Of a DNA stretch of 64,000 nucleotides, positions 6,997 to 51,006 are shown piece by piece. This DNA comes from Scenedesmus sp. PABB004. Taxonomy: Eukaryota. The stretch covers positions 248,001 to 312,000 of the forward strand of contig JABVCE010000013.1 in the NCBI GenBank assembly GCA_014905635.1, written 5' to 3'. The position numbers were made by a program, and so were the translations under genes. The notes under the pieces are model-generated. The model was not told where the DNA came from and searched no databases. It worked only from the letters and a program-made list of their open reading frames with translations. Every line of letters starts with the position of its first letter. Position 1 is the first letter of the stretch.

Positions 6997-7589
6997 GCGC
7001 CTGGCACGGGCGGCGCGCGCGGCGAGGGCCGCGCGCTGTGGGCGGGCCGGGCCGGCCGTGCGGCGGGCGGCGGCCCCGGACGCGGCGGGGGCGGGCGGGC
7101 GGGCGGGAGGGCAGGCGGGGGCGGGCGGCCCTGCAGGCGCAGGGCGGCCCGCGGTCTCTCTGCTCTGGGGCGCACGCCCGCGTGCGTGGGGAGCGCGGTG
7201 GGGGCGGGGGGCGCAGATTCGCGCCCGGTCGCCCGTGCAGGTTTCTGGCGGCGCAGCGGGGGCGCGCGGGGGCGGGCGCTGGGCTCTGGCGCCGGTGGTC
7301 ACCGGCGCGGCGGCGCCACGCCGCGCGGCGCGCGCGCCAGTCAGCGCGCGGTCGAGCGCCGCGCGCTGCAAGGCGGCCGCCGCCGGGCATTTTGGCTCGC
7401 GATGCAGGGCAGATGTTGACTGTGTGTACTGTCCGCCGCCTCTGCGCGGCGCCCTGACGGCCTCGGTGTGACGCCCAACTGTCCCGTCCCCCGGCCGCGC
7501 CGCGCCGCGCCGCGGACCAGAGTTACGCTCGACAGCGACAGCACAAAGCGCGCCCCGCGCCGCGCCGCGCCGCCCGATACTACGCCCGC

Positions 7590-9397
7590 TCAGCCGCGCG
7601 TGGCGAGCACGAGCTGGGTCTGGTCGTCGCGCGCGATGCCCATGTGAAGGTCGATGTCGGTGCGGCTGCGCCAGCCGCGCTCCTCCGCGATGGCCTTGTC
7701 CAGGACCACCTCCTCGAAACGCTTGCCGTTCTCAATCCTGCGCGCGTGACGGCCGCGCGCGGCGTGTCAGCGCGCGCGCGCGTGGAGCGTAGGGGGTGGG
7801 CGGGAGTGGGCGCGGGCGGCAGCGGGCCGCGCGCGGCGCGGCGCTGCGCTGCGCTGCGCGGCGCGCCTGTGCTCCGCGGCGAGCGCGGCGTAGTTGTCCG
7901 CCGACGCGGCGACAAAGCCCTTCTCCTCGGCGGAGAGTTTCCGCAGCAGCTTGGCGGGCGCGCCCGCCCACACCTCGCCGCTCTTGACGACCGAGCCTGC
8001 GCGGCGCGCGCGGCGCGCGCGGGCGCGCGCCGCGTCGGCGCGCGAGCGCGCGGCTGCTGCGCGCCCTGCTGCCGGCGCGCCTCCCGGGCGGCGACGCGCA
8101 CGCCTGCGCCGCGCGCACGCACCCGGCGGCACCACTGCGCCCGCTGCCACGATGCTGCCCGGCTCCATCACCACGCCGTCCAGCAGGGTCGCGCCCATGC
8201 CGACCTGAGAGATGCAGGCGGGGGCGGCGGCGCGAGCCCGCGCGTCGACCAAGCGCGGCACATGGGCGTACGCTGCCGCGGCAGGCGTGCGGGCGGGCGC
8301 GCGGCGCGGCGCGGCGCGCACCAGGCAGCCGTCGCCGATCTTGCAGGCGTGCAGCGTCGCGCCGTGGCCGACGGTGACCGACGCGCCGATGACGGTCGGC
8401 GCCGGCGCGGCCGACGCGGCGCTGTGGCGCGCGACGTGCACGACGACGTTGTCCTGGATGTTGGTCTTGTCGCCCACGACGATGGCGTTGATGTCGCCTG
8501 ACGGCGGCGGGCGCGCGGGCGGGCGCCGTGGGCGCGCGGGATGAGCGCGCGCCGTCGCCCGCGCCCCGCGCCGGCGCGCCGCCGCTGCCAGGCCCGCCGC
8601 CGCCGCCGCGCCGCCGCTCAACCCCGACCCCGCGGAGGCTCTCTCACCTCGCAGCACGGCGCCGTACCAGACCGAGGCGAGCGCGCCGAGCGTGACGTTG
8701 CCGAGCAGCTTGGCGTTGGGCGCGACAAACACGCCCTCGCCCTTGAGCGGCGACACGATGTCAAACGGCGCGCTCTCGCGCACGCGCGGGTTGAACGGCA
8801 CCCGCTGCTGCACGCCCGCCGACTTGACGTCAGCGCTCGCCTCAAACGGCATCCACGCGGTGTTGGGCGCGACTGCGGGCGGCGCGCGGCGCGGCGGCCG
8901 CTGGGCGCGGCGCGCGCGGGCCGCGCGCGGCGCGCGGCGCGCCCCCGCGCCGCGCGATCGCGGGCGCCGGCGACTACTGGCGCTCCGGCGCACGCCGCCG
9001 GCGCTCCGCGGCCGCCCGCCTCCGCCGGCCGGCGGCGGCGGCGCCGCCGGCGCGCGAGCAGCGGCGGCAGCGCCGGCGCCGGCGCTGCCGTCGCCGCGCC
9101 GCGCGCGCCGCTCGCCGGCCGGGCTCGCCGCGCCGGCTGGGGCTGGATCCGCCGCCGGACCGCCCGCTCGGCGCCCCAGGCACCCGAATGGGCGCCCCCT
9201 CGCGCGCGGGCGGGCGGCAGCAGCGCGCCATCCCACTCACGCGCGTCCTGCTTGGCGAAGGGGCCCTGCACCGCCGCGCCCAGGCTGTCCAGCGCGCCGC
9301 CCAGGCCCCGCATCATGCCACCGAGCGCGTAGAGCGTGCGGCCGATCGCGTCCTTCGGCTTTGGCCACCGCCCCAGGTACACCACCCGGGCGCTCAT
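7590..9397 (-). CDS. Gamma carbonic anhydrase (mitochondrial complex I type), 6 exons
   Basis: Hexapeptide repeats FVAPNAKLLGNVTLG, SVWYGAVLRGDINAIVVGDKTNIQDNVVVH, VTVGHGATLHAC (three His ligands present), VGMGATLLDG, EVWAGAPAK. Confidence 0.92.
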
Positions 9398-33416: not shown

Positions 33417-35215
33417 TCAGCGCGCGCCGCCGGCCAGCAGCGGCTGCCCCGCGGCGCTCTCCTCGTCCCGCGCGTCGGCGCCGGCGGCGCCGTTGGCGGT
33501 GCCCACGCCCGACAAGCTCACGCGCGACCCCGCGCCGTTGCCGTGCGCCTTGGCCGCCGGCTCCTTGTCCTTGCCGTCCTTGCCCTCCTTCCCGTGGCTG
33601 CCGTGGTCCTTGGTCGCGCTCTGGTAGTAGAGCGCAGCCACGACCACGCCCGTGCCCGCCCTGCGCGCCGCCGGGCGGGGCCGCGTCGGTGGCCGCGCGC
33701 GCCGCGCGCCGCGCACCCTGCGCCCGCGCGCCCGCGCGCGCCGCACCACTGCCCCGCGGTCAGCGGGCTGCCGAAGAAGAGGCTGGAGAGGAGGATGCTG
33801 AGGAACTGGCGCGTGGTCATGATGATGGCAAACACGAGCGCGCCAAAGGTCTTGATGGTGTACGAGATGAACAGCGAGCCTGCGCCGCACGCCGCGCGGC
33901 GCGGTGGCGCGTGAGCGCAGCCGCCCGCGCCCGCTGCCGCCGCCGCTAGCGTCCGCCCGCTGCTGCGCCCGTGGCCGCCGCGCACCGCAGCTGGACGCGC
34001 AGGAGAGGAGGATCATGGCCGACAGCGCGTCGGGGTGGCGCGTGATGAAGCCGAGCGTCGCGGTCAGCTGCCCCGACGTCAGCAGGCCTGCGCGCGGCGG
34101 CACGCGGCGGCGCACGTGGGCCCGCGCCGCGCGCGCGCGCGCGGCGCGGGCTCCTCCGCCGCGCCTGCTGCCCCCTCCGCCCGCGCGCGCCGCCGCCGCC
34201 GCCGCGCACCGAACGAGCTGAGCACGATGGAGCAGAGCGAGACGTAGAGCACCTGGTTGTAGCTCGTCATCGCGTAGCCCTTGAACATCTTCTGCTGGAA
34301 CGTCGACGTGTAGCCGTCGGCGGTGAGGTAGCCGACCATGAGCAGGATGCCAAACATGCTGCTGTTCTTGTCCGTCGCCACGCGCGACGCGGTGGGGCCG
34401 GTCATGAAAAAGATGAAGCACCCGCCCGTGATCGCGACCGCGAGCGCGACGTCGCGCAGGCTGTAGCGCTTCTTGAGGATGATGTAGCCCCAGATCATGA
34501 CCGGGAACATCTTGGCGCACTTGCCGAGCGTCTGCACCGCAAATGTGACGTGCTTGAGCGCCTCGTACTGGCACGTCGTCGCGACGACGTTGGAGAGCGA
34601 CACGCTCGCGTACGACAGGATCGGCGCGACGGGCTTGAGCTCGTCGGTGCGGCCCTTGATCTGCGCGGCCGGCCAAGCGGGGCGGCGGGCGGGCGGGCGG
34701 GCACGCGCGCGGCGGTTGGGCGCGCGCCGCTGCGGTGACGCCGCCGCGCGCGGCGGCCGCGCGGACCGTGCGGACCGCTCGGACCGCGCCCCCACGCAAC
34801 GCCCATTGGCGCCCCGGGCGCGGGCGCCCCGGCTGCGGGCGGCGGCGGCGTCGGCAGCGCGCGCACCACGAGCGTGAGCGCCGCGATGGTGGCGGCGACG
34901 CTGCGGTTGCAGAAGACCAGGAACAGGCTGTACTTGAACACCTCCGCGTTCTCGCCCACGCCGTAGGGGATGGTCATGATGCGCTCCTGCGGCGCGCGCG
35001 GGCTGTGCGTTACCGGCCGGCGCGGGCCTTGGCCGAGGCATCGCCGTCCCTCGCCCGCCGCGCGCCCCGGGGCGCGCCTGCAGGACGCCATAGAGCAGGA
35101 GGCTGCCCACGACGCCCACGACACAGAACGCGAGGTGCAGGGCATCGTTCTTGAACAGCGGCGCCGCGACGCTCGCGACGCCCGGCAGCGGCTGTTTTTC
35201 GGCCTTGGCCGCCAT
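33417..35215 (-). CDS. SLC35B/UAA-family nucleotide-sugar or PAPS transporter (SLC35B2/UTR-like)
   Basis: YGVLQERIMT, FLVFCNR, SNVVATTCQYEALKHVTFAVQTLGKCAKMFPVMIWG, DGYTSTFQ, YTIKTFGALVFAIIMTTRQ. Confidence 0.92.
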
Positions 35216-35609: not shown

Positions 35610-37736
35610 ATGGCGGCGCTGCCGCCGGGCATGGTCATGCACCCCGCCATGCTCACGCAGGCGCAGGCGCAGGCCCTGGTCGCGCGGCCGGGCATGGCGG
35701 GGCCCGCGGCGGCGGCCGCGGCGGCGGCCGCGGCGGCCGCGGCGCAGCAGCAGCAGCGCGCGGCGGGCGCCGCCGGCAGGGCCGCGCCGAAAAAGCGCAA
35801 GGCCGCGGAGAAGGCGGCCAGCGAGAAGGTGCATGCGGCGCCGCGTCCGCGCCACCGCCGGCGCCCGCCGCTCGGGCTTTGCTTGCGCGCGGCGCGCGCG
35901 CGACCGCCGCGCCGGCGCGAGACCGCCGCGACCGCGCCGCCGCGCCGCCCGCAGCCGCTCGCGCTCATCCCCGAGAGTGCGCTCTTCAACAGCCTGGCCA
36001 TGCAGGAGCGCGAGCTCGACTACCAGCTGCGCCGGCGGCGGCTCGAGGTGCAGGCCGCCGCGGCGCCGTACGAGCACCCCGCGCACAAGCGGCTGCGCGT
36101 GTACATCTACACCACGCACGCCAACCAGCCGCGCCCGGGCGCGGCCGCGCGCGGCGGCGCCGACGCGGAGCCGCCGTCGTGGACGCTCAACCTGTGGGGC
36201 CGCCTCGTCGACGCCGACGACCCGCCGCCGCCGCCCGGCAGCGACGCGGCGGCGCTGCTCGAGGCCGCGGCCGCGAGCGCCGCGCCGCCGGGCCCCGCGC
36301 CGCCGGCGCCGGCGGGCGGCGCCGCGGGCGGCGCCAAGTCGCACGCGTTCACGAGCTTCTTCCGGCGCATCACCGTGGAGCTCGAGCCGGAGCAGCCCGA
36401 CGAGCAGCAGCAGGGCGGCGCGCGCTTCGTGTGGGAGCGCCTGCACCACCGCGGCGCGCACAAGGAGCGGCTCGAGATCAAGCGCCGCGGCGCGCGCAGC
36501 GTGGCCGCGACCATCACGCTCGAGCAGGAGTTCAGCCCACCCGCGTACGCCGTCGACCCGCGGCTCGCGCAGGTGCGCGCGGCGGCGGCGGCGGCGCGCG
36601 GCGCCGCGCAGCCCCCGCCGCCAAGCGCGGCGCGGCCGTCCGCTCGCCCGCCCGCCCGCCCGACGCCCGCCCGCCCGCCCGCCTGTCTGCGCGCAGCTGG
36701 TGGGCGTGACGTTTGGGCAGCAGAACAGCGTGCTGGCGCGCGTGTGGACCTACATCCACAAGGCCAAGCCGCAGGTTCGCCGCGCCGCCCCCGCTGCCTG
36801 CCGTCCGGCGTCCGCCCACGCGCCCGACCCGCCGCGCTCACGCGCCGCCGCCGCCGCCGCGCCCCGGCGCGCAGGGCGGCCCCGGCGCGCCGCTGGAGCT
36901 GGACGAGCGCATGGCGGGCGTGCTGGGGTCGGCCCAGATGCCACGCGACGCGCTGCCGGGCGCGGTGGGCAAGCTGCTGAGCCCTATGCAGCCCATCACG
37001 CTCGACTACACCATCGAGTGAGCAACAACAACAACAGCGCGCCCCGCAGCCCGCCGACGGGCCCCGCGCTCGGCCCGCCGCCGGGCGCCGCCGGCGCCCA
37101 CGCCGCCGCGCGCCCGCGCCGCCGCGCAGCGTGAGCGGCGCCAGCCCCGGCGCCGTGACGGTGCTAGACGTGGACGTGCTGCTGCCCGCGAAGCTGCAGG
37201 ACCGGCTCGTGCCCGGCCTCGACGCGCTCGAGGGCGACAAGGCGGTGCGCCCCGCTTGCCCGCCCGCGCGCGCGGCGCCCCCGCCCGGCCGCCAGCGCGC
37301 CGCGCGCCCGGCGGCCCGGCCGCCGAGACGCCGCCCGCCCGCGCCGCACGCGCCAGACGGAGGCGATCGACGCGCGCATGGCGGCGCCGCTGGCCAAGCT
37401 CAACGAGGCGCGGCGGCGGCGCGCCATGCTGCTGGGCTTTGCCGAGGCGCCGGTCGCCTTCCTGAACGCCGCCATCGCCGGCCAGGTGCGCCGGCGGCTG
37501 CGCCCGCGCCGCGCGCGCGCCGCGGCAGCCGCCCGCCAGCCGCGGGGCGCGCCGGCGGCGCCGCCGCTGACCGCACCGCGCGCGTGCACGCGCGCGCGCA
37601 GGGGCTCCGCGACCTGCGTGTGCTGCGCACGGACGCCAAGGACCTGGAGCGCCGCAGCGACGTGTTTGCCGAGGCGTGGGTCGAGGAGGCGGCCGCGAAG
37701 CTGCTGGCCAAGAAGAACGGCGTGCCGCTGGCCTGA
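35610..37736 (+). CDS. SWI/SNF complex BAF60/SNF12 (SMARCD-like) subunit
   Basis: ALIPESALFNSLAMQERELD, RLRVYIYTTHANQ, WTLNLWGRL, FTSFFRRITVEL, SWIB-like VLARVWTYIH, PITLDYTI, RRRAMLLGFAEAPVAFL. Confidence 0.87.
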
Positions 37737-37810
37737 CGCGGCGCCTCGGCGGCGGGCGCGCGGGGTGGGGCCGTCGTGGCGCTGCAATCCGGCTCGCGCC
37801 CCACGCCGGC

Positions 37811-38586
37811 CGGGCCCACTCGGCTGGCAGCGCTGCGCAGCGCGGCGCGGCGCGGCGGTGGAGGCGGTGCAGATGCGGCTCGCGCGGCTGCGGGCCGAGC
37901 AGCAGCAGCAGTCAACCGGCGGCGCGCCGGCAGCGTGGGTCGGCGGCGCAGCCCCGCGCGGCGCCGCGCCGTGTGTCGCGCGGCACTGACGCGCGCGGGA
38001 GCCTCCAGTGTGGCGGGGCCGGTCGCCCCGTGGCGCGCGCGTGGGCTGCAGGCCCTGGGCTGCCGGCGCGTTCCTCGCGGCCGCGCCTGGGCTGCCGGCG
38101 ATGCGGCGGTGCGCGCGCCTGCGGGGCGCGCCGGCGGCGCGCGCCCGATTCTGGGGCGCCGCCGCCGCCCGCGGGGGCGGCTGGGGGCCGCCGCGCGGCC
38201 CCACCGCCAGCCCGGGGCGCGCGGACTGGGCACGCACGCGCGTGTGGGCGGCGCGCGCCCGGCGGCGAGCGCGCGGCGCTGCGGGCGCGGCGTGAATCGG
38301 TGTGTTAAAGTGCCGCCCCGCTGATTCTGACGCGGGCTCCGCCAACCGCCCCGAGGCGCCCGCGCGCCGCGCCGCCGCCAGGCTTCCCCGCACGAGGTCG
38401 ACGACTCCCGAAAGCACGCCGCCATGGCGAGAGACGCGCAGCGAGCTCGCCCGGACTCTGCCCCGCCCCCCGCGCTCTGAGCGACGCGCGGGAGGCATGG
38501 ATGCGGACGCCCAGGCCTTTGCCGCGCTGGTTGGCAGCTCCCTGAGCGGGCAGCGCGGCCCGCCCGCCCCGGACGGCTTCCCGGCG
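37811..38586 (+). repeat. Copy 1 of ~775-bp inverted duplication: frameshifted last exon of the coiled-coil gene plus live promoter and first exon of the MYB gene
   Basis: Reverse complement of 44655-45428, with about 15 substitutions and two small indels by manual comparison. Confidence 0.97.
38424..38480 (+). promoter_or_regulatory. Candidate uORF (18 aa, MARDAQRARPDSAPPPAL) in the leader of the LHY-like gene
   Basis: gccATGg context; stops 16 nt before the main ATG at 38497; AT-rich GTTAAAG upstream at about 38304. Confidence 0.5.
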
Positions 38587-41500
38587 AGCGACAGCGGGCG
38601 CGCGCCCAAGGTGCGCACGCGGGGCACGCTGCTGGGTCAGCGCGGCGCCCAATTGGCAGGAGGAGCTGACATATGCCCACAGCGCCGGCGCCGAGCCGCG
38701 ACTGCGCCCGACCGCGGCGCGGGGGCGTCGCCGGCACATGCGGAGCGCGGCGCCCTCACGCCTCACCGCGCTCTCGCAGACGCGCAAGCCCTACACCATC
38801 ACCAAGCAGCGCGAGCGCTGGTCGGAAGAGGAGCACCTGCGGTGCGCGCCGCGCACGCGCCCGCCGGCCGCGCCCGCCCGCCCCCGCCGCGCCGCTCACG
38901 CGCCCCGCCCCGGCGCTGCCGAGCAGCTTCGTGGAGGCCCTGCGCCTGCACGGCCGCGCCTGGCGCAAGATTGAGGGTGCGGCGGCACGCCGCGCCGCTG
39001 CCAGGCGGACGCGCGCCTGGCCGCAGCCCCGCTCACCGCCGCCCGCACGCCCGCACGCCCGCCGCGCAGAGCACATAGGCACCAAGACGGCCGTGCAGAT
39101 TCGCAGCCATGCACAGAAGTTCTTCAACAAGCTGGAGAAGAAGAAGGAGGCCGGCGAGGTGGCCGACGGAGGTGCGGCGCAGCAGGCCTCGCGGCGGCGC
39201 GCCGGCGGCGGCGGCGCGGCGACGGCGGCAGGCAGCCACCCCTGCGCGGGCAGCGGCCGCAGCCGCGACGACGCCGGCGGCGGCGCCGGCAGGGGCGGCG
39301 CCGGCAGGGGCGGCGCCGGCAGGGGCGGCGCCGGCAGGGGCGCCCGGCGGCGCGGCCCGGCCCCGCCCGCCGCGCGCCGCGCCAGGCTCGCCTTACCCCG
39401 CCCGCGCGCGGCCCGCCGCGCAGAGGAGGAGCTGACCATCCCGCCGCCGCGCCCCAAGCGCAAGTCGGCCAAGCCCTTCCCCCGCAAGGAGGGGCTGAGC
39501 TCGTCGGGCTGCCACACCGGCACGAGCAGCCTGCCGCCGAGCAGCCTCGCGCTGCTGACGCGGCTCGCGCAGCCCGGCGGCGCCGCGTCGGAGGTCACCG
39601 ACGCGACCGTTGCGGCGGTCACCGCGGCCGCGTCGGCGGCCGCGGCCGCGGCGGCCGCCGCGGTCGTCGCCGCGGCGGGGCAGGAGGTGCAGACGCACCT
39701 GCAGGTCCACCCGCCCAGCTGCTTCCCCTTCTTCGGCATGCCCCCGAGCGCGCTCGCGCGCGTCACGCCCGCGAGCGCGGCGAGCCTGGACGCCGCGGCG
39801 GCGCTGTCGCAGCAGCAGGCCGCGGCGGCGGTCCGCGCGGCCGCGGCGCAGCAGGCCGCCGCGGCGGCCTGGCCCGCGCGCGGCGCGGCGGCGGCGCCGG
39901 CGCTACGGTTTGACGGCGCCGCCGCCGCCGGCGCGGCCGCGGCCGCGGCCGCGCGCGACCCGCCGGCCGACGGCGACCGCGGCCTGGTGGAGGCGACGGG
40001 CACGACCGACGGCACGCACGTGAGCGCGTACGCGCAGCAGCGCGGCAGCGACGGCGACAGCGCGTGCTCGCGCGAGACCGACAACCCGGACGCGCACCCG
40101 AGCGCCGGCATGGACGCGAGCTGGCAGAGCCGGCTGCACCACGCGGCGCTGCTGCAGCAGCGCCAGGACATGGGCAGCAGCAGCCCCTCCGCCGCCGCGG
40201 CGCGCGGCCTCGCGGGCCTCGCGGCGAGCGGGTTTGACCCCGGCAGCCTGCAGTGGGGCGCCGCCGCGGGGTACGACACCAGCAGCGCGGGCAGCGCCGT
40301 CGCGCTCACGCCCGCGGCGGCGCTGGCGCTGCTCAGCAGCCCGCTGTTTTTCGCGCAGCAGTCGGCGCTGCAGGCCGCCGCGGCCGCGGCGGCGGCGGGC
40401 CTCGGCGGCGCGGCGTGCGGCAGCGGCGGCGCCGCCGCCGCCGGCGCGGGCGCGCCGCGCTCGAGCGGCGGCGGCGGCAGCGGCCGCACCAAGAGCCGCC
40501 GCACGGCGCCGTCGGTCAACAGCGGCAGCACGGGCCCGCCGCTCGGCGCGAAGCGCGCGCACGAGGGCGGCAGCGAGGGCGAGCGCTCGCGGCCGGCGGC
40601 CAAGAAGGCCGCGCGCGAGCGCAGAGACACGGGCGAGGAGGGCGAGGGCCTGGAGGCCAGCCCCAGCAGCCCCAGCATCCAGGAGAAAGACCACAAGGCC
40701 GCCAGCCAGCCCAGCAACACCAACGGCAACACCAGCGGCTCCAACGAGTCGGACGGCAGCAAGCGGTGCGGCGCGGCGGCGGCGCGGCGCGCGGGGCTGC
40801 GGCCGGCCGGCTCCCCCTGCGCCGCGGCCGCGGCGCGCGAGCGCCGTGCGGGGGCGGGGGCGGTCTGCTGACGCCGGCGCGCGCGTCGCCGCCCGCCGCG
40901 GCACAGGCGCCAGGGCACCGCCGGCGGCGAGGGCAGCAACCCCACCAACGGGAACTCGAGCGTCAAGGACAGCAACACCGGCACCAACGGCCACACCACC
41001 AACGGCTACGGGCACGGCTACAGCTGCGGTGCGCAACGCCGCCGCCGCCGCCGCCCAGGCCGCGGCGCACTCGCGCTGCCCGCGCGCCGCGCGGCACGCG
41101 CCCCCTGCGCCGGCCCCGGCCTGACCCCCGCCGCCCGCCGCCCGCCCGCGGCGCGCAGGCAACGGCACGAGCGCGTTCAACCCGGTCGGCGGCCACCACC
41201 ACCACGCCCACCACCACGCCCACCGCCACGGCCACGCGCTGCACGCGCAGGCAGCCACCGGCGCGGGCGGCGCGGGCGGCGCCGGCGCGGAGGCCAGCAA
41301 CGGCGGCACGCGCGACGAGGGCCGCTCCAGCAGCGACCTGGAGGGCCCGCCGTCGGCGCTGCAGCAGCCGCGCCTGCGGGGCGCGGCCGAGGACGACGCC
41401 ATGCCCGACGCGCCGCCGCTGGCGCCGGGCGGCGCGGGCGCCGCGCCCTCGGCGCAGCGCAGCGAGCCCGCGGCGCAGCTGCAGGCGCTGATGGCGTCGC

Positions 41501-41964
41501 TGCACGGCATGTGCGGCACCCCGCTGGCGCTGCAGCAGGCGTACGGCGCGGCCGCGGCCGCGGCGACGGCGCAGGCCGTGGCCAGCGCCATGGACGCGGG
41601 CGGGCAGCTCGCGCAGCCCAGCGCCGCGCCCGCGGCGCAGGGCTTCACGCCCTGGCACGCCGGCGCGGCCGCTTCGGCGGCGGCGACGACGCAACAGCTC
41701 CAGGCCGCGGCGGGGCTCATGGGCCTGGCCGGCGGCTGGGGCGGCGCTGGCGCGGCCTTCAGCGACCACCACCACCACGCTGCAGCCGCAGCGGTGGCGG
41801 CGGCGCACGCGCGCGCGGCGGGCCTGCTGCCGGGGCTGGGCAGCGACGCCGACGTGGCGGCGGCGGTGGCAGCGGTCGCCGGCGCGGCCACGCTGCAGCA
41901 GCTGCACGCCGCCGGCGCGCTGGGCGGCGGCGAGGGCGCCGCGGCCAGGGCGGCCGCCGACTGA
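38497..41964 (+). CDS. LHY/CCA1/REVEILLE-family single-MYB (SHAQKF) circadian transcription factor (ROC40-like)
   Basis: Spliced [57 protein letters not shown], followed by IPPPRPKRKSAKPFPRK and ATVAAVTAAASAA. Confidence 0.93.
39281..39340. repeat. 15-bp minisatellite (CGGCGCCGGCAGGGG)x4 in a MYB intron
   Basis: Read directly from the sequence. Confidence 0.9.
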
Positions 41965-43492
41965 TCCCGCGCGCGAGCGCGCGGGCGCGCCATTGCCGTG
42001 CTGCTGCCGGCTCTTTATCGGCGGTGTGGGTGGGAGCGCGTGGGACTGCGTGGCTTGCGTACGAGCTGTGGTCGGGCGGAGCGGGGGAGCGCGTGAGCGC
42101 GGGAGTGGTGGTCCTGCCGCGGCGAGTGGCTGCCTGGCGCGACGATAGCCCCCTGCGGGCGAGGGAGGGACGGGGCGCGCCGGGCGCTCCTCATCATCGA
42201 GTTGCCTGGTGGGAGCGGAGCGCTGCTGGGTGGGCCCTGCGTGCACGCACACGCCGCGCGCCGCCTGCGCGGAGGGGCGCTTGGGAGCGTCGGGCGCCGG
42301 CGTTTGCTCGAGCGCCGCGTCCCGGCTGCTGCCAGCATGCCTCGATTGCCGTGCGCGCGCGCGCCCTTCTCGGAACACACACGCGCACAGCACTGCTGCT
42401 GCGTCGAGCGAGGCGCATGGGATGCCGGGGGCCGCCGGCGCGGCGGGCATGCACCCGCGTGCCCTCGTCGGCGGCCGCTGCGAACAATAAAAGAACTGAG
42501 GCCCCGCGTGATAGCGCGGGCTTGCGTGACTGAGTGCCTTGGTCCCTGCATCGGTTGCTGGCGGAGGCGCCGCCACGGCTGCGGCCCGAGGTGCGCTGCC
42601 CCGCGGGGCAGCGCGGCTGGCCGGCGCCGCGCCGCGCGCGCGCCTCCGCCCGGACCCCGCAGTCTGTGCGTGAGGCAGAGGCGCGAGGCAGAGGGCGAGG
42701 GTCTGAGCCCCCGCGGGCACTCACTCAGCTGCAGCTGACTGCGCGCGCTTCGAGCGCGCACAGCGTTTGCTTGCACAAACTCTTGCGGCGCCTAGGCGTG
42801 TCCCCGCAGGCCGCGGCGCTGCTGCTGCTGTCAGCCTACGATTGCTGCTGTCTCGCTCCGTTCCGACGCGGCCGGCGTGCTGTCGCTGGCAGCCGCCGCC
42901 ACCGCCTTGCATGACTTTGCGCGATCGCGCACCACTCGCGAGTGGATGGAGGCACACGTGAGCCACGTGCTGCACCTGCCAACAGCATCACCCAGTCGGC
43001 ATTGGCGCCGGCGCGGGCTGCGTCTCTCTCTCTCTCTCTCGGTTCTGGGGCAGCCCGCTGTGTGACGTCAAGCCGCTAGCTGCCGGGCCTGCGGCGCAAG
43101 CCGGACGACCACACCGCCCGCCGTCGCGCAGTCAGTCAGCGGGGGCTGCAGCCACAGCAGCCAGTCCGTGAGGTATCAGGTTTTACCGAGCGCAGTGCGT
43201 GTTCAGACCCCACAAGGCGCGCGCGCCTCGCTCAGGAGGCAGCGACGCGCCGCCGCGCACAGCGCAGTCGCGCGCCGCCCGTGCAGCACCCGACGCTGTC
43301 CCCGGGCGCCCGAGTTGACCACCCGCGGTCGTTGATCCGCCGCCCCAGACCTCTTTTTCTTTTTCTTCTTCTCTCCCTCCTGCACACCCGCGGCAGCAGC
43401 AGCAGCGACCCACAAATTCGTTGAGGCGGGGCCCCCGGGCCGGGCCCGCCGCGCGTTCGTTGATCGGCCCGCTGGCTGTTGGAGGGAGGTCC

Positions 43493-44429
43493 TCACGCCA
43501 GCAGCGCCAGCAGCGCCAGGCCAGCAGCCTGCGCAGCGCGGGTCGGCGAGGCGTCGCGCGCGCGTTTGCGACAGGCGGCGGCGCGCGGGCGCCGCGCGTG
43601 CGGCGGGCGCGGTCGACACCCCGGCACACAGGCCCACCAGCAGCGCGGCGCCGCCCGCGCGGCCGGCCGGCGCGGCGGCGTTGACGACGGAGTTGGTGCC
43701 GGTCGCGGGCGTGCTGCGCGGCGCGCACGCGGCGGTGATGTGTTTGTGTGTCGCGTTCTTGTAGATGCGGCAGGACATCCTGGCCGATGCGTAGCACGCC
43801 ACGGTGGCGCCCTTGGGCGCGGCCTCGGGCAGGTCCTTGTCCGCGCCGGCGGGGCACTTGGTCTTGTTGAACGGCGACTTGTCCGGCAGGCACTCGGCCA
43901 GCGCGGCGCCCTTCTTGGTATCGTCAGAGTAGGGACATCCACCCACGAAGGCCGCGCAGTCGTCCTTGGCGTAGCAGGCGGTGTTGCCGTAGCAGCAGCC
44001 CAGGTCCGGACCGCAGTGGCTCTCCGTCTGCGCCGCGGCAGCAGGGGCGCCTCAGCCGCTGACGCCTGCTGCCAACTGGCCCTCGCTGGCCGCACGGCGC
44101 GGCACGAACGCGAGAGGCGCGGCGGCTGAGGCGGCAGCAGCGGCGCAACCGGTGACGCTGGCGGCACGCAGCGCTGGCCGCACGGCGCGGCAGCAACGCG
44201 GCCGCAGAGGCTGTACCGTTCAGCCGGGCGCTGTCGGGCGATGGCGCGGTGGCCGTGCTGGCGCGGCCGCCGTGCGATGGCGAGCGCCCGCCGGGCCCCG
44301 GCCATCCACGCGCGCCAGCGCTGCCGCGGCACTCACCTCGGCGATCCAACACGCGTCACCGGGCTTGGCGGCCCGCGCCTGCAGGAGCAGGCCCGCGGCG
44401 CAGAGCAGCAGGAGCGGGAGGCGCGGCAT
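43493..44429 (-). CDS. Small secreted Cys-rich protein with hydrophobic C-terminus (putative GPI anchor), unknown family
   Basis: Signal MPRLPLLLLCAAGLLLQARA; intron 44336-44028; mature region has 12 Cys; a probable last intron gives the tail AAGLALLALLA*. Confidence 0.72.
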
Positions 44430-44654
44430 GGCGGCTCGGCTCGAGCGTCAGGAGAGGCAGCGGAGGGCGCGAGGGGCGCGTGGGCGGCTCGTCGGCGCGG
44501 CTGGCGGCTCGGCCCGAGCTGGTTGACTGTGTGCTGACTGCGCGGTCAGTGACGGCGCAGAGGCGTCACTGCTCCACAGCGCAAGGCGCCCCGCGGTCCA
44601 AAGGGGTCAAGGCAGCTGTAGAACGGCCTGGAGGTGCGCCGCGGTGGCGCACGG

Positions 44655-45428
44655 CGCCGGGAAGCCGTCCGGGGCGGGCGGGCCGCGCTGCCCGCTCAGG
44701 GAGCTGCCAACCAGCGCGGCAAAGGCCTGGGCGTCGGCATCCATGCCTCCCGCGCGTCGCTCAGAGCGCGGGGGGTGGGGCAGAGTCCGGGCGAGCTCGC
44801 TGCGCGTCTCTCGCCATGGCGGCGTGCTTTCGGGAGTCGTCGACCTCGTGCGGGGAAGCCTGGCGGCGGCGCGGCGCGCGGGCGCCTCGGGGCGGTTGGC
44901 GGAGCCCGCGTCAGAATCAGCGGGGCGGCACTTTAACACACCGATTCACGCCGCGCCCGCAGCGCCGCGCGCTCGCCGCGGGGCGCGCGCCGCCCACACG
45001 CGCGTGCGTGCCCAGTCCGCGCGCCCCGGGCTGGCGGCAGGGCCGCGCGGCGCCCCCCAGCCGCCCCCGCGGGCGGCGGCGGCGCCCCAGAATCGGGGGC
45101 GCGCCGCCGGCGCGCCCCGCAGGCGGGCGCACCGCCGCAGCGCCAGCAGCCGAGGCACGGCCGCGAGGAACGCGCCGGCAGCCCAGGGCCTGCAGCCCAC
45201 GCGCGCGCCACGGGGCGACCGGCCCCGCCACACTGGAGGCTCCCGCGCGCGTCAGTGCCGCGCGACACACGGCGCGGCGCCGCGCGGGGCTGCGCCGCCG
45301 ACCCACGCTGCCGGCGCGCCGCCGGTTGACTGCTGCTGCTGCTCGGCCCGCAGCCGCGCGAGCCGCGTCTGCACCGCCGCCTCCACCGCCGCGCCGCGCT
45401 GCGCAGCGCTGCCAGCCGAGTCGGCCCG
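44655..45428 (-). repeat. Copy 2 of the inverted duplication: live last exon of the coiled-coil gene plus orphan MYB promoter and first 30 codons
   Basis: Contains ATG 44744 MDADAQAFAALVGSSLSGQRGPPAPDGFPA, which runs into unrelated sequence and stops at 44607. Confidence 0.97.
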
Positions 45429-47719
45429 AGCGGCCCTCGCCTGCGAGGGGGCGCCAACGGACAGGCAGCGTCAGTGCAGTTCGGCAGCTTGGCAACCTTA
45501 CAGGCAGGCGGCGATCGCTTCAGCAGCGCCGGCCGCGCCTGCTCGCGCACGGACTGGCGCATCACCGCCGCCAGCTCCTGCTGATGCTGCTGCCGCAGCA
45601 GGTCCAGGTCGCGCTGTCGCTGCTGCGCCGCGGCGTCGCTGGCCGCGCGCGCCGCGTCAGCCGCAGCTGCGGCGTCGGTGGCTGCGCCCGCGGCGGCGTG
45701 CAGCTCGTCCAGCGCCCTATGGCCGGGCGCGGCAGCGCGGCGGAGCAGCTCAGCCGAACGGAACAAAGCTGCGGCGGGCCCGTGCGCTGGCTGTGCCAAT
45801 TCTTGCGCCCGCGCACCTGCGCAGGTGCAGCAGCTCTGCCGCCTGCTGGCCCAGCTGCCAGCGCAGCTCGCCCGCCTCGCGCTGGGGCGTGGCAGCGCAG
45901 CCGGCCGGCGCCTGCGCCGGCAGCACCAGCGCCGCGCCTGGCCGTTGCGGCGAGGGCGGACCTGCCAGGCGGTCCGCGAGCGCCTGGCGCTCCCGCTCGA
46001 GGCGCGCCAGCCGCTCGTGCAGCGCCTGCTGCTGCGCTGCCGCGCCCTGCTCGCGCTGCAACGCGGCGGTGGGGCGCGCCGCCGCGGGGGCCGACGTGAG
46101 CCAGCGGCGCAGCGGAGCCGCGACCAGCGCCCGTCCGGCCGGGCCCCACCTGCAGCGCGGCCGCGGTGTGCTCGGCAGTGAGCCTGGCCACGAGGGCGTC
46201 CCGCTCAGCCTGCCACACCTGGCGCTCCTTCTCCAGCGACTGCTGCGACACCACGCGCACCTGCGGCGCCGCGCAGCGCCGCGGGCGGGCGCGCGTGCCG
46301 CCGTCGCCGCCTCGGCGGCCGGCGGCTGGCCCCCTGCCCCTCTGACGCCCCCGCGCGCCGCGCGCACACGGCCACCGACCTGCATCACGGCACTGGCATG
46401 GCTGCGCTCGAGCGCCGCGCGCTCCTTGTCCCACGCCTGCCGCGCAGCCGCGAGCGCCGCCGCGCCGTCCGCTGCCGCCTGCTGCAGCGCGGCCGCCGTC
46501 TGCGAAAGCTGCTGCTCGAGCGCCGCCGCCCGCGCCGCCGCCATCGCCGCCCGCTCGTCGGAGGCCGCCAGCTCGCGCCTGAGCTCCTGCAGCTGCGCGC
46601 GCAGCTCCTGCTCGGCGCACCGCGCGCGCTCCGCCGCCGCCGACTGTGCCTCCGCCGCGCTCGCCTGCGCTGCATCGTGGCTCGCGACCAGCGACGCGCG
46701 CAGCCGCTCGCGCTCGTCGGCCGCCGCCGCTGCGTCGCCGGCGCGCTCGCGCCGCAGCTCCGCGGCTGCCTCGCGCTCGCGGGCCGCCACGGCCTCAGCG
46801 TCGCGCGCCGCCGCGTGCGCCTGCTGGAGCTCCGCGCGCAGCTGCTCCAGCTCCGCGGCGGCCGCCGCCAGCTGCGCCGCGCTCTTGCCCGCCGCCGCCG
46901 CCCCCGCCGCCGTCGCGTCGTTCGCGCGGCGGCGGTCGCGCGCTGGCGCTCCGCGTCGGCCAGCAGCAGCTGCTCCACCGCCGCCGCCGCCGCCGCCAGC
47001 GGCGCCGGGGCGCCGTCCGGCGCCGCGTCATCGCCCCCGCAGCGCTCCCGCCGCCAGCGCAGCAGCGGCCGCAGCACCGCGTCGCGCAGCTCCCGCTCCT
47101 GCCCCGGCCTCGCCGCCAGCTGCCGCTGCGCCGCCTTCAGCTCGCGCCCCAGGCGCACGTTGGCCGCCGCCTGATCCACGAGCTGCTGCGCCTGCGCCGC
47201 CAGCGCGCGACCGCTGTCCGCCAGCCGCGCGTTGGCCGCCTCTGCCACGCCCGCGGCCTGCTGCGCGGCGAGTCTCCAGGCCTCGACGTCGCGCCGCAGC
47301 GCGTGGCGCTGCTTGACCGCCGCCGCGCGCGCCGCGGACAGCTGCGCGTGCAGCGCGGCCTGGGCCGCCTGCGACGACGCGAGCTCGGCCAGCAGCCCGC
47401 CCAGGCCCGCGCCGCGCCCGGGCGACCGCCGGCGCACGGTCGCCGCGGCGACCTCGGCCGACAGCTCGGCGCGCAGCGCCTCGAGCGCCGCCGCCGGCTT
47501 TGGCGGCGCGTCTGGCTGCGACGCCGCCGCAGGCACGGCGTCGACGGCGGCATCACAGCCGTCCAGGCTGCTGCCGGCGTCGTCCTCGGCCTCCAGCACC
47601 GCGCGCAGCCGGCGCAGCAGCTGCGCCGCGCGCTGCTGCTGCGAGCACGTGTCCGCCACCGCCGCGTACAGCTCCTGCCGCGCCGCCTGCAGCTGCTGAT
47701 CGCGCGCCAGGGCGGCCAT
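45252..47719 (-). CDS. Long coiled-coil protein of unknown function; apparent frameshift at about 46920-46945
   Basis: A/E/Q/R/L-rich heptad sequence ([18 protein letters not shown]...); last intron GC-AG 45538-45441 with CTGAC branch point; last exon [10 protein letters not shown]...CVARH*. Confidence 0.7.
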
Positions 47720-48141: not shown

Positions 48142-51006
48142 ATGGGGATCCTAGAAAAGTGCGGGCGCAGCGGCGCCGGCCGCCGGCGGGCGCGGGCGGC
48201 GGCAGCAGCGGCGCGCGCCGCTGCGCGCCGAGCCCGCCGCGCGGCGCGGCGCCCCGCAGGATCAAGGAGATCGAGGCGGAAATGGCGCGGACGCAACGGA
48301 ACAAGGTGCGGCCCTGGTTCCGGCGCGCCCGCCGTCGGAGCGGCGCAGCGGCGGCAGCCGCAGCTGGCGGCAGGAGCGGCTGCGCGCCGCGGCGACACGC
48401 GCGCCGCGGTGCGCGCCGCGGTGCGCCGCAGGCCACGGAGTACCACCTGGGCCAGCTCAAGGCGCGCCTTGCCAAGCTGCGCACGGAGCTGCAGGCGCCG
48501 TCGTCAAAGGTGCGGCGGCGCTGCCGTGCTGCGTCAGGCAGTGCAAGGGGGGGGGGGGGGGGGGGGGGCTGCGCGCACGCAGGGCCGCCCACCGCCCACC
48601 TGCGCGCGCGCCGCCGCTCGCGCGCGCAGGGCGGCGCGGGCGAGGGCTTCGACGTGCAGAAGTACGGCGACGGCCGCGTGGCGCTCATCGGTAGGGCCAC
48701 ATCTCGCCAGGCGGCAGCGGCGGCTGCGGCGGGCCCTGCGGGGCGCCGGCCGGCCCGCCCGCCCGCCCGCCCGCCCGCCCGCCTGCCCGCAGCGGCGGCG
48801 CGCGGCCCACGCGCCCGCGCGCCCACCGCGCGGCCGCGCCCGCCTCCCGCAGGCTTCCCGTCGGTCGGCAAGTCGTCGCTGCTGACCATCCTCACGGGCA
48901 CGGAGAGCGAGGCGGCGGCGTACGAGTTCACCACGCTCACCTGCATCCCGGGCGTCATCCACTACAACGACGCCAAGATCCAGCTGCTCGACCTGCCCGG
49001 CATCATCGAGGGCGCCGCCGAGGGCAAGGGCCGCGGCCGGCAGGCACGAAACAGCGGCGGCCGCGCGGCGGCGGCGCGGCGGCCCCGCACTCCCTGCCGA
49101 CGCGGCGCCGACACGGCGTGCCACACGTGGCGCAGGTCATCGCTGTGTGCAAGAGCGCCGACCTGCTGCTGATGGTGCTCGACGCGACCAAGCCGTGGTA
49201 CCACCGGGAGATCCTCACGCGCGAGCTCGAGAGCGTCGGCATGCGCCTCAACCGGTGCGCCCGCGGCGGCGGCGCCGCGGCGGGCGCGGCGGCGCGGCGT
49301 GCGGGGGTGCGCCCGCGCGCCCACCGCCGCACGTGCGGTGCGCCGCGCGGGGGTGCGCGCGCGGCGGCGCCCACCGCCCGCCGCCGTGCGGCGCCGCGCC
49401 GCCGCGCGTCGCGGGGCGGTGGCCAGGTCGCCGCCGAACATCTACTTCAAGAAGAAGAAGACTGGCGGCGTGGGCATCAACAGCACGGTGCCGCTCACGC
49501 GCATGGACGAGAAGATGGTGCTGCGCGTGCTGCAGGAGTACAAGATCCACAACTGCGAGGTGCGCGGCCGGGCGGGCGGCGGGCACGTGCTCGGGCGGCG
49601 GGCGGCGGGCGGCGGCGCGGCCGCACGTGTGCGCGGGTGCACGGGTGCGGGGGTGCGGGGGTGCGCGGCGAGGGCGTGCGGGGCGCGGGCGCTGAGCGGC
49701 GGCGCGTCGTGCCGCGCCGCGCCGCGTCGCGCAGCTGCTGTTCAAGGAGGACTGCAGCGTGGACGACCTCATCGACGTCATCGAGGGCAACCGGCGCTAC
49801 GTCAAGTGCCTCTACGTCTACAACAAGGTGCGCCGCGTGCGCGGGCGTGGCCTGCGTGTGTGTGCGGCGCGTGCGGCGTGTGCGCCGCGTGCGGGCGTGG
49901 CGTGTGTGTGTGCGGCGTGTGCGCTGTGTGGCTGGTGTGTGGGGCCAGCGCGCACGCGCAAGCGCGCCGCGCCGCTGCCCCGCCGCTGCGCGCCATCTGC
50001 GGGGGCGTCTGCCGACGCGTTGCGCGCCGCGCGCCACGCGTCCCGCACCGCGCCCCGCGCGCCCAGGTTGACATGTGCAGCATGGAGGAGGTCGACGAGA
50101 TCGCGCGGCGCGCCAACTCCATCCCCATCAGCTGCAGCCTGAAGCTCAACATGGACGGCCTGCTCGCGCGCATCTGGGACATGATGGCCCTGGTGCGACG
50201 CGCGCGGGGCGTGGCGGCGCGGAGCGGCGCGGGCCTGCGCGGCGCGGCGCGTGCCTGCGCGGCGCGGGCAGTGGGCGGGGCTGGCGCGGCGGGGGCAGCG
50301 GCACGCCTACCCGGCCTCTTGCGGCGCGGCGCGGCGCGGCACGCCTACCCGGCCTCTTGCGGCGCGGCGCGGCGCGGCGCGCCCACCCGCGTGCGGCGCG
50401 GCGCAGGTGCGCGTGTATACCAAGAAGGTCGGCCACAAGCCCGACTTTGCCGAGCCCGTGGTGCTGACGTCGGACCGGTGCGGCGGCGCCGCAACGCGGT
50501 CGCGGTCGCGCGCGCCGCCGCCCCCTCCCCCGCCTCCCCCGGCGCCGCCCCGCCGCGCGGTCGACCCCGCCGCGCGCGTGCGCCGCAGCGGCGGCACGAC
50601 GATGGAGGCGATGTGCAAGCAGATCCACAACACGCTGAGCCGGGAGTTCAAGTATGCGCTCGTGTGGGGCGCGAGCGCCAAGCACTACCCGCAGCGCGTC
50701 GGCATGACGCACCAGCTCGCCGACGAGGACGTCGTGCAGGCGCGGCGCGGCCGCTGCTGCGCGGCGCTGCTGCGCGATTCGGCTGCTGTGCGGGCGGGGC
50801 GCGCCGGCCGCCTGCAAAAAGGGGCGGCGCCGCGGGCCGGGGCCGTGCGCCGCGCCCGCCGACGCGCCCGCGCGCGCGGCGCCACGCGCGCGCAGGTGGT
50901 CAAGGCCAAGGTGCAGACGGAGGAGGGGCGGGGACGGTTCAAGACGACCAGCGACAAGCCGCTGCGCATCGCCGACCGCGAGAAGAAGGCGGCGCTCAAG
51001 ACGTAG
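48142..51006 (+). CDS. DRG2: Developmentally regulated GTP-binding protein, DRG2/Rbg2 type, 12 exons
   Basis: [63 protein letters not shown] domain FKYALVWG. Confidence 0.95.
50298..50380. repeat. About 38-bp tandem duplication in a DRG intron
   Basis: GCGGCACGCCTACCCGGCCTCTTGCGGCGCGGCGCGG occurs twice. Confidence 0.8.

Follow-up and report, generated by a model that had tools for sequence, protein, structure and literature searches.

What kind of event leaves the junction between two neighboring genes present twice, in opposite orientations and some 6 kb apart, with each copy continuing a different one of the two genes? The question is raised by a single pair of inverted repeats in the window (the whole 64-kb stretch of DNA that was analyzed). 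Over 782 aligned columns the two copies are 97.3% identical, with a bit score of 1314 (MAFFT, blastn). The repeats and the DNA between them are as follows.

37805..38586, plus strand: copy 1 (U1), comprising a 3′-end fragment of a coiled-coil (CC) gene, a spacer, and the 5′ region and first 30 codons of a MYB gene
44655..45434, minus strand: copy 2 (U2), the reverse complement of copy 1
38587..44654, no strand: the block between the copies (6068 nt), holding the rest of MYB (plus) and a Cys-rich gene (minus) in convergent orientation; the putatively inverted segment

A first-pass annotation had reported an inverted duplicate at 37811-38586 and 44655-45428 with about 97% identity, and MAFFT, blastn and a repeat search all bear this out. 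For those coordinates (37811-38586 / 45428-44655) megablast gives 97.55% over 776 columns; the repeat search returns arms of 745 nt (37842-38586 / 44655-45399, 97% complementary) together with a 48-nt extension offset by an indel (37805-37852 / 45387-45434, 94%). The inner boundary is sharp and the outer one fuzzy by ∼6 nt (37805 or 37811). No homology was detected beyond either end: the local alignment score of the inner flanks was matched or exceeded by 64%, and that of the outer flanks by 84%, of 2000 random window pairs. It is the sole long repeat in the window, blastn finding no other repeat of at least 150 nt and no third copy in the 64 kb. The copies differ at 21 of the 782 columns, with a net length difference of 2 nt at 37850-37862. 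The differences are clustered (P = 0.0005; top-two-gaps test, 20,000 permutations), leaving stretches of 209 and 203 nt in which the copies are identical, a pattern that could stem from gene conversion or from constraint.

The content ascribed to the unit at first pass (last CC exon, intergenic DNA, 30 MYB codons) is confirmed by direct reading of the sequence: the 3′ end of the CC gene is followed by a 507-nt spacer and then by the first 30 MYB codons. Copy 2 runs on into the CC gene and copy 1 into the rest of MYB; the other sides abut foreign sequence, and four distinct unique flanks surround the two copies. Because each copy continues one gene and meets foreign sequence at the opposite end, the unit is best explained by a single ancestral CC-to-MYB junction. 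The CC side consists of the following features.

45551..47719, minus strand: upstream CC exons, Ala/Gln/Arg/Leu/Glu-rich and coiled-coil-like; candidate ATG at 47719; internal exon boundaries approximate
45252..45440, minus strand: CC terminal exon in copy 2, 62 codons plus a stop (TGA at 45254-45252), predicted to be in frame with the previous exon
37805..37989, plus strand: dead CC terminal-exon fragment in copy 1, without acceptor and first codons; net +2 nt frameshift at 37850-37862; equivalent of the stop at 37987-37989

The acceptor AG of the terminal exon lies at 45442-45441, 6 nt outside the repeat. The first-pass prediction that in copy 2 this exon is spliced in and stops at 45252 stands; compared with the GC donor then assigned to it (45538), an in-frame canonical GT donor (GTGCGC) at 45550 fits better. 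MYB introns 1 and 2 use the identical hexamer as donor, and the GT-AG intron 45550-45441 is probably a better model than the GC-AG intron 45538-45441, which is also in frame. A GTAAGG donor at 45501 was rejected: it would shift the terminal exon into a frame of about 180 codons of Arg/Gly/Ala filler. The reading frame of the penultimate exon stays open up to copy 2, and whichever splicing model holds, the CC coding sequence must therefore terminate within that copy. The position-specific GC content of the 62-codon exon (0.87/0.74/0.89) fits coding sequence. Its 62-aa product had no match among 1.84 billion representative proteins, and a 231-aa CC exon compared with longer proteins gave none at E ≤ 0.001. 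In copy 1 the acceptor is missing and the indels described earlier are present, +5/−3 being an equally valid way of writing the net 2 nt.

The MYB side shows the reverse arrangement: the start belongs to a gene in copy 1 and is orphaned in copy 2.

38497..41964, plus strand: predicted MYB coding region of the CCA1/LHY/RVE type; stop at 41962-41964
38497..38610, plus strand: MYB exon 1, ATG at 38497; 38 codons, of which exactly the first 30 (38497-38586) lie in copy 1; donor AAG/GTGCGC
38780..38841 and 38927..38976, plus strand: predicted MYB exons 2 and 3
39067, plus strand: start of the long MYB exon, marked by a 19-residue peptide; a further intron lies near 40790-40915
44607..44744, minus strand: orphan MYB start in copy 2, ATG at 44744; 30 MYB codons, 15 foreign codons and a stop

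The motif SHAQK(Y/F)F in a Myb domain is the signature of CCA1/LHY/RVE-type single-MYB proteins, and it is found in the peptides (19, 16 and 19 residues) read from the MYB exons. Taken singly, the exons of the window fall below the cut-off of Pfam Myb_DNA-binding (E 0.0018 and 0.038). Scanning metagenomes with a degenerate MYB exon-4 pattern returned three related loci (L001, L002 and L003), none from the same species, with MYB exon identities to the window of 87% or less. The unsplit homologous exon of L002 scores 34.1 bits against the Pfam family (cut-off 24.4), and the MYB exons of the window are 68-90% identical to that exon. Exon 1 itself is coding-like (GC3 = 0.92), and exons 2 to 4 hold no in-frame ATG. 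L002 requires an upstream coding exon, since an in-frame stop, and no ATG, precedes its exon 2; the two loci have the exon 1 donor context CC(C/A)AAG/GTGCGC in common, and the exon 1 peptides show no significant similarity (E 4.9). An in-frame ATG at 38737, within intron 1 and outside the repeat, is a possible alternative MYB start.

Outside the CC and MYB genes, the rearranged region involves two further genes.

35976..37736, plus strand: verified part of an SNF12/BAF60 (SMARCD)-like gene; stop TGA at 37734-37736, 68 nt before copy 1
43600..44429, minus strand: Cys-rich gene, ATG at 44429-44427; signal-peptide-like N-terminus; main Cys-rich exon at about 44030-43640; 3′ end approximate

Judged by its sequence, the former appears to have both the conserved N-terminal region and the SWIB domain of the SNF12/BAF60 (SMARCD) subunit of SWI/SNF. 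In a PDB sequence search its conserved exon (35976-36548) hit SMARCD at E 1e-5 and RSC6 at E 1.7e-4, and a SWIB fragment at 36685-36780 (E 0.048) stays under the Pfam cut-off because introns split the domain. The Cys-rich exon matched no Pfam family and had no useful Atlas neighbor (best score 0.78). We note that TGTAA, considered as a polyadenylation signal, is not enriched; with only 7 sites in 64 kb it is unusable for placing 3′ ends. The orphan MYB ATG sits 315 nt upstream of the ATG of the Cys-rich gene and points at that gene. If 37804 is rejoined to 44654, the distance from the SNF12-like stop to the Cys-rich ATG (37737-37804 plus 44654-44430) is 293 nt, in line with the earlier estimate of about 300 nt.

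Together these features are, in our view, best explained by a micro-inversion, about 6.8 kb long, in which staggered breaks duplicated the sequence at one of the two breakpoints, a reading that we hold with moderate confidence. The ancestral order would have been SNF12> Cys-rich> <MYB <CC, where arrowheads give the direction of transcription: CC followed on the same strand by MYB, with 507 nt from stop to ATG, and the SNF12-like gene followed ∼290 nt later by the Cys-rich gene. One break would have fallen between SNF12 and the Cys-rich gene, at 37804/37805; the other side would have broken at two points separated by 0.78 kb, the first a few codons inside the CC terminal exon and the second behind MYB codon 30. 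Fill-in and end joining would then invert the block from the Cys-rich gene to MYB and leave it bounded on either side by the 0.78-kb junction, in opposite orientations. Thanks to this duplication every gene would have stayed whole: CC would retain its last exon and 3′ flank in copy 2, and MYB its 5′ flank and start in copy 1. The spare halves would be the frameshifted CC fragment behind SNF12 and the orphan MYB start before the Cys-rich gene. A staggered-break inversion had already been proposed at first pass; the geometry is as then described, one new junction is present in a second strain, and the size of the duplication falls within the range known from Drosophila, and the ancestral order and the one-step mechanism, together with any consequence for expression, are what we infer from these findings. 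No short inverted duplication was found at the other breakpoint (score 18; 63% of random pairs score at least as high), and the signature that separates inversion from copy-and-paste is for that reason missing.

An assembly artefact, in which mis-joined haplotypes or strains make one locus appear twice, had also been raised at first pass. The window comes from a probably rare organism, which was seen in two freshwater-metagenome runs with shares of 0.14 and 0.06 of sampled words, and this lends the idea some substance. However, a metagenome contig of 466 nt (X1 record 7, covering 44323-44786) bridges 44654/44655, extending 332 nt to one side of the junction and 132 nt to the other. Set against the window it shows 4 substitutions and 28 gap letters, every one of them in the unique part; because it bridges the new junction yet differs from the window, that junction is present in another, diverged strain, which makes an artefact unlikely. 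A second metagenome contig (X2 record 10) bridges 38586/38587. The other new junction, 37804/37805, is bridged by none of the 16 contig pieces listed among 533; contig joints with sides of 20-24 nt were set aside, as they look like GC-rich cross-matches from other organisms. Moreover, 21 columns distinguish the copies, whose four flanks are all unique and all different, and 37804/37805 would be absent from any mixture of simpler haplotypes, leaving an assembler without reads from which to build it. We consider an artefact very improbable.

Still less probable, to the point of being barely worth entertaining, is that the segment is a 7.6-kb transposon-like unit with the copies as its terminal inverted repeats: inverted repeats do bound it, but these ‘repeats’ are parts of two host genes, the flanks (CCCAC and CCTCG) form no target-site duplication, none of the 37 ORFs scanned shows a transposase-like family, and there is no further copy in 64 kb. 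Neither in nor between the copies was a tRNA, an Rfam family, a target-site duplication or a transposase-like Pfam match found, and scans of the 36-47 kb interval for tRNAs, Rfam families and tandem repeats gave no RNA genes, only GC-rich low-complexity arrays. A more serious competitor, although we think it unlikely, involves two steps from the same ancestral order: first, template switching or repair from an ectopic template would have placed a second, inverted CC-MYB junction between SNF12 and the Cys-rich gene; homologous recombination between the two copies would then have flipped the block. The end product is identical by sequence to that of the one-step inversion and geometry leaves all four genes intact in either orientation. 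The long perfect tracts and clustered differences fit ongoing exchange between the arms, but constraint on both copies could give the same clustering. Two events are needed where one suffices, and no target-site duplication surrounds copy 1.

It is also conceivable that there was no inversion: the present order would be old and a 0.78-kb piece would have been copied in inverted orientation, giving either CC a new 3′ end, derived from MYB upstream sequence, or MYB a new 5′ end. None of the three related metagenome MYB loci contradicts this, and none displays the ancestral order that we propose for the inversion. None adjoins a CC, SNF12 or Cys-rich homolog or has a neighbor in common with the window: in the taxon of L001 and L002 a sterol methyltransferase lies upstream of MYB, and in L003 the neighbor is a divergent saccharopine-dehydrogenase-like gene. 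Our searches found no conservation of either the CC terminal exon or MYB exon 1, and the ATG at 38737 offers MYB another start. Against this, the CC case needs foreign sequence to supply a lucky in-frame exon and stop behind an existing acceptor, for a frame that has no stop before the repeat, and the MYB case needs a lucky promoter and in-frame start joined mid-exon, again from foreign sequence. Furthermore, the donor context in common with L002 suggests that MYB exon 1 is old. We regard this explanation as improbable, more so than the two-step route.

If a micro-inversion did take place, the locus is a clean, young and small case in which a breakpoint duplication lets an inversion cut two coding exons with neither gene destroyed. 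It also places a spare MYB 5′ region, accompanied by an upstream ORF of 45 codons, before an unrelated gene. More speculatively, and we would not expect it to prove correct, the arms may still recombine, in which case the 6-kb MYB/Cys-rich block would occur in both orientations in the population, a nuclear flip-flop with gene conversion keeping the long tracts identical. Such a flip-flop would leave all four genes intact in either state; in both, the Cys-rich gene would lie directly behind the spare 5′ region of a clock-type MYB gene, and its regulation may have been rewired through promoter capture. The footprint belongs to a known type and opens no question of long standing; what the locus offers is a worked case and, possibly, a marker for structural polymorphism in the organism.

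The closest parallels are in Drosophila, where Ranz et al. 2007 (PMC1885836) describe inverted duplications of unique sequence at the breakpoints of 17 of 29 inversions (median 321 bp, range 46 bp to about 1.9 kb), in 12 cases at one breakpoint only. As in the staggered-break inversions of that account, the two ends of the block carry inverted duplicates of genic sequence that is otherwise unique and non-repetitive; as in those 12 cases, the duplication is confined to one breakpoint. Its length, ∼780 nt, falls within the Drosophila range, and the spare copies similarly decay through substitutions and small indels. Unlike the large cytological inversions described for flies, the block is only ∼6 kb and holds two genes, the copies are more alike (97% versus a mean of about 88%), and the host is an alga-like genome of 80% GC. 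Set against the Drosophila cases, both breaks of the staggered pair would here lie inside coding exons, with both genes whole. Our literature search returned no paper joining staggered breaks, an inversion breakpoint and an alga. With this locus, a pattern for which flies provide ample documentation would reach an alga-like genome that is very rich in GC. There is also a likeness to the human polymorphic inversions between inverted segmental duplications described in PMC3961182: highly similar inverted repeats flank a flippable block, and the mosaic of perfect and divergent tracts is that expected from gene conversion between the arms of such duplications. Unlike the inversions described there, however, the repeat in the window is a gene junction that can be explained by the rearrangement itself, and it need not pre-date it.

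At ∼80% G+C throughout, and with stop-free stretches in all six frames, the window is one in which chance similarity between GC-rich sequences is common. One pair of sequences stands well above this background. A repeat search of the window returned an inverted pair of 745 nt at 97% identity and a 48-nt extension, with an indel offset between them; aligned in full (alignment and blastn), 37805–38586 and 45434–44655 are 97.3% identical over 782 columns (bit score 1314). The remaining blastn matches to the unit within the window are stretches of ∼70% identity, and self-megablast found no other repeat of at least 150 nt in the 64 kb. Homology ends sharply on both sides: alignment scores were no better than those of 64% (inner flanks) and 84% (outer flanks) of 2000 random pairs. 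The inverted gene-junction repeat described in the first-pass annotation is thus borne out. Its unit comprises the 3′ end of a coiled-coil gene, a spacer and the first 30 codons of a MYB gene, in the following setting:

37734–37736, plus strand: stop codon of the SNF12-like gene, 68 nt ahead of the repeat
37805–38586, plus strand: copy 1
38497, plus strand: ATG of the MYB gene, read from the sequence
38497–38610, plus strand: MYB exon 1, 38 codons, exactly 30 of them within copy 1; donor AAG/GTGCGC
38780–38841, 38927–38976 and from 39067, plus strand: next MYB exons, carrying the MYB domain
41964, plus strand: end of the MYB coding sequence
44429, minus strand: signal-peptide-like start of the Cys-rich gene, inside the block between the copies and neighbouring copy 2
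44655–45434, minus strand: copy 2
from ∼47719, minus strand: coiled-coil gene, by sequence reading

The gene upstream of copy 1 is SNF12/BAF60-like, with matches to SMARCD (E 1e-5) and RSC6 (E 1.7e-4) plus a SWIB fragment. Divergent from it is a UAA-family nucleotide-sugar transporter (34216–34636, minus strand, E 1.7e-30), and past the 5′ end of the coiled-coil gene lies an MMR_HSR1 GTPase domain (48853–49050, plus strand, E 1.6e-14). A family search gave no assignment for the Cys-rich gene. Where this gene and the MYB converge (42000–44000), G+C falls to 0.73 as against ∼0.80 elsewhere; the interval includes a purine-rich run near 43380 that reads as Lys6 on the minus strand.

The MYB exons after exon 1 encode the domain (12 residues, not shown, ... 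SHAQKFF) of CCA1/LHY/RVE-type MYBs, for which a SHAQKFF-type motif is the family signature. Pfam evidence for a Myb domain is weak for the window's split exons and clear for their homologue at a related locus, where the exon is unsplit and reaches 34.1 bits (cut-off 24.4). Position-specific GC in exon 1 (0.76/0.66/0.92) fits what would be expected of coding sequence. Several codons in the MYB-domain exon at 39067–39125 end in A or T (ATA, ATT, CAT, GCA), while GC3 in the remainder of the gene is 0.95–1.0. Within 40790–40915 an in-frame TGA (40869–40871) is flanked on both sides by strong coding periodicity; it is best explained as lying within a putative short intron with donor GTGCGG and acceptor CACAG.

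A degenerate pattern built on the invariant MYB exon recovered three related loci from metagenomes, all with further MYB motifs in common with the window. Two of these, L001 and L002, are 99.6% identical and represent one taxon of ∼74% GC; the third, L003, is 64% GC. Similarity between exon 1 of the window MYB and that of L002 was not significant. An in-frame ATG at 38737, within intron 1, would allow an alternative start 14 codons ahead of exon 2 were that intron retained; L002 has no counterpart, an in-frame stop intervening. Relatives of the SNF12-like, coiled-coil or Cys-rich genes were found at none of the three loci. Upstream of the MYB, L002 carries instead the 3′ end of a sterol methyltransferase gene in tandem (332–466, E 3.6e-14), and L003 a divergent saccharopine-dehydrogenase-like gene (5349–7625; a weak Pfam match, E 0.013, below cut-off, plus an ORF reading). 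Gene order around this MYB is thus not conserved among these GC-rich taxa and changes quickly.

The coiled-coil gene ends in copy 2. The frame of its penultimate exon is stop-free until it enters the repeat, so coding must end within copy 2 whatever the splicing. If splicing runs from a GT donor at 45550 to the acceptor AG at 45442–45441, the frame stays open for 62 more codons, up to a TGA at 45254–45252. An in-frame terminal exon had been proposed previously and stands, but its GC donor at 45538, although also in frame, is non-canonical, and GT–AG is therefore preferred. MYB introns 1 and 2 have the same donor hexamer (GTGCGC) as the site at 45550. Position-specific GC of the terminal exon (0.87/0.74/0.89) is likewise compatible with coding. 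This exon has no relatives among 1.84 billion representative proteins, and a protein search with the longer coiled-coil exon also found none.

The other half of each copy appears spare. Copy 1 lacks the coiled-coil acceptor and first codons, and a net change of +2 nt at 37850–37862 shifts the frame. In copy 2 the MYB ATG (44744) is followed by its 30 codons, 15 foreign codons and a stop at 44607; this orphan start points towards the ATG of the Cys-rich gene, which lies 315 nt beyond it. As sequence logic, the earlier claim that each copy would keep one live half is correct. A GTGCGC, the donor hexamer of MYB introns 1 and 2 and the preferred coiled-coil intron, occurs two bases outside copy 2 on its inner side, reading along the orphan frame (44643–44654, minus strand); transcripts starting in copy 2 could use it as a cryptic donor.

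The 21 differing columns are unevenly distributed: 9 fall in the outer 70 nt, 10 in 38084–38261 and 2 in the last 325 nt. Between the clusters lie stretches of 209 and 203 nt without a single difference, and a sum of at least 412 nt for the two longest such stretches arises by chance with P = 0.0005 (20,000 permutations). Two explanations would fit the clustering: gene conversion between the arms, or constraint acting on the two copies. The latter is conceivable if the SNF12-like gene now uses copy 1 as its 3′ flank and the Cys-rich gene uses copy 2 as its 5′ flank. Conversion, if real, would mean that the arms still pair and that the block between them could flip; by geometry, all four genes would stay whole in either orientation.

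Could the arrangement be an artefact of mis-joined haplotypes? Contigs from two metagenome runs with small shares of the window were aligned to it. One (44323–44786) spans the new junction on the Cys-rich side, 44654/44655, covering 332 nt to one side of it and 132 nt to the other. Relative to the window this contig has four substitutions and 28 gap letters, every one in the unique part, and the junction is therefore present in a diverged strain. A second contig (38455–38711) spans 38586/38587 and has C at 38505, the copy-2 state, so the G of copy 1 is probably a change confined to the strain of the window. Another (45418–45609) reaches 17 nt into copy 2, too short to count as bridging. The other new junction, 37804/37805, on the SNF12 side, is covered by none of the 16 pieces listed out of 533. 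An artefact is nonetheless unlikely, because mis-joined simpler haplotypes would contain no such junction. Both inner-side contigs stop at the equivalent position of the repeat, 132 nt in (38455 and 44786), which may reflect an assembly-graph branch or polymorphism.

Since the unit runs from the 3′ end of one gene into the 5′ end of another, both genes were presumably once tandem neighbours. The simplest history would be inversion of the block from the Cys-rich gene to the MYB, by one blunt break on the SNF12 side and a pair of breaks 0.78 kb apart on the coiled-coil/MYB side, the ends then being filled in and joined. One signature would tell inversion from copy-and-paste: a further short inverted duplication, derived from the other breakpoint. 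A search for one found none, and no target-site duplication is present. Insertion of an inverted copy followed by recombination between the arms would yield the identical product from the identical ancestral order. Pure duplication without inversion, in which the coiled-coil or MYB gene acquired its working end from foreign sequence, is less likely, given that the MYB exon-1 donor context is common to the window and L002 and that the coiled-coil frame stays open right to the repeat.

Inversion with a one-sided breakpoint duplication is the most economical interpretation, its key premise being a presumed ancestral gene order, and it matches a well-described mechanism. According to a Drosophila study (PMC1885836), inverted duplications of unique sequence occur at 17 of 29 inversions (median 321 bp, maximum ∼1.9 kb), in 12 cases at a single breakpoint only, and fill-in and end joining of staggered breaks is the model proposed. 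In form and size the window repeat fits the duplications reported there, and the locus would be a further case of an already known mechanism.
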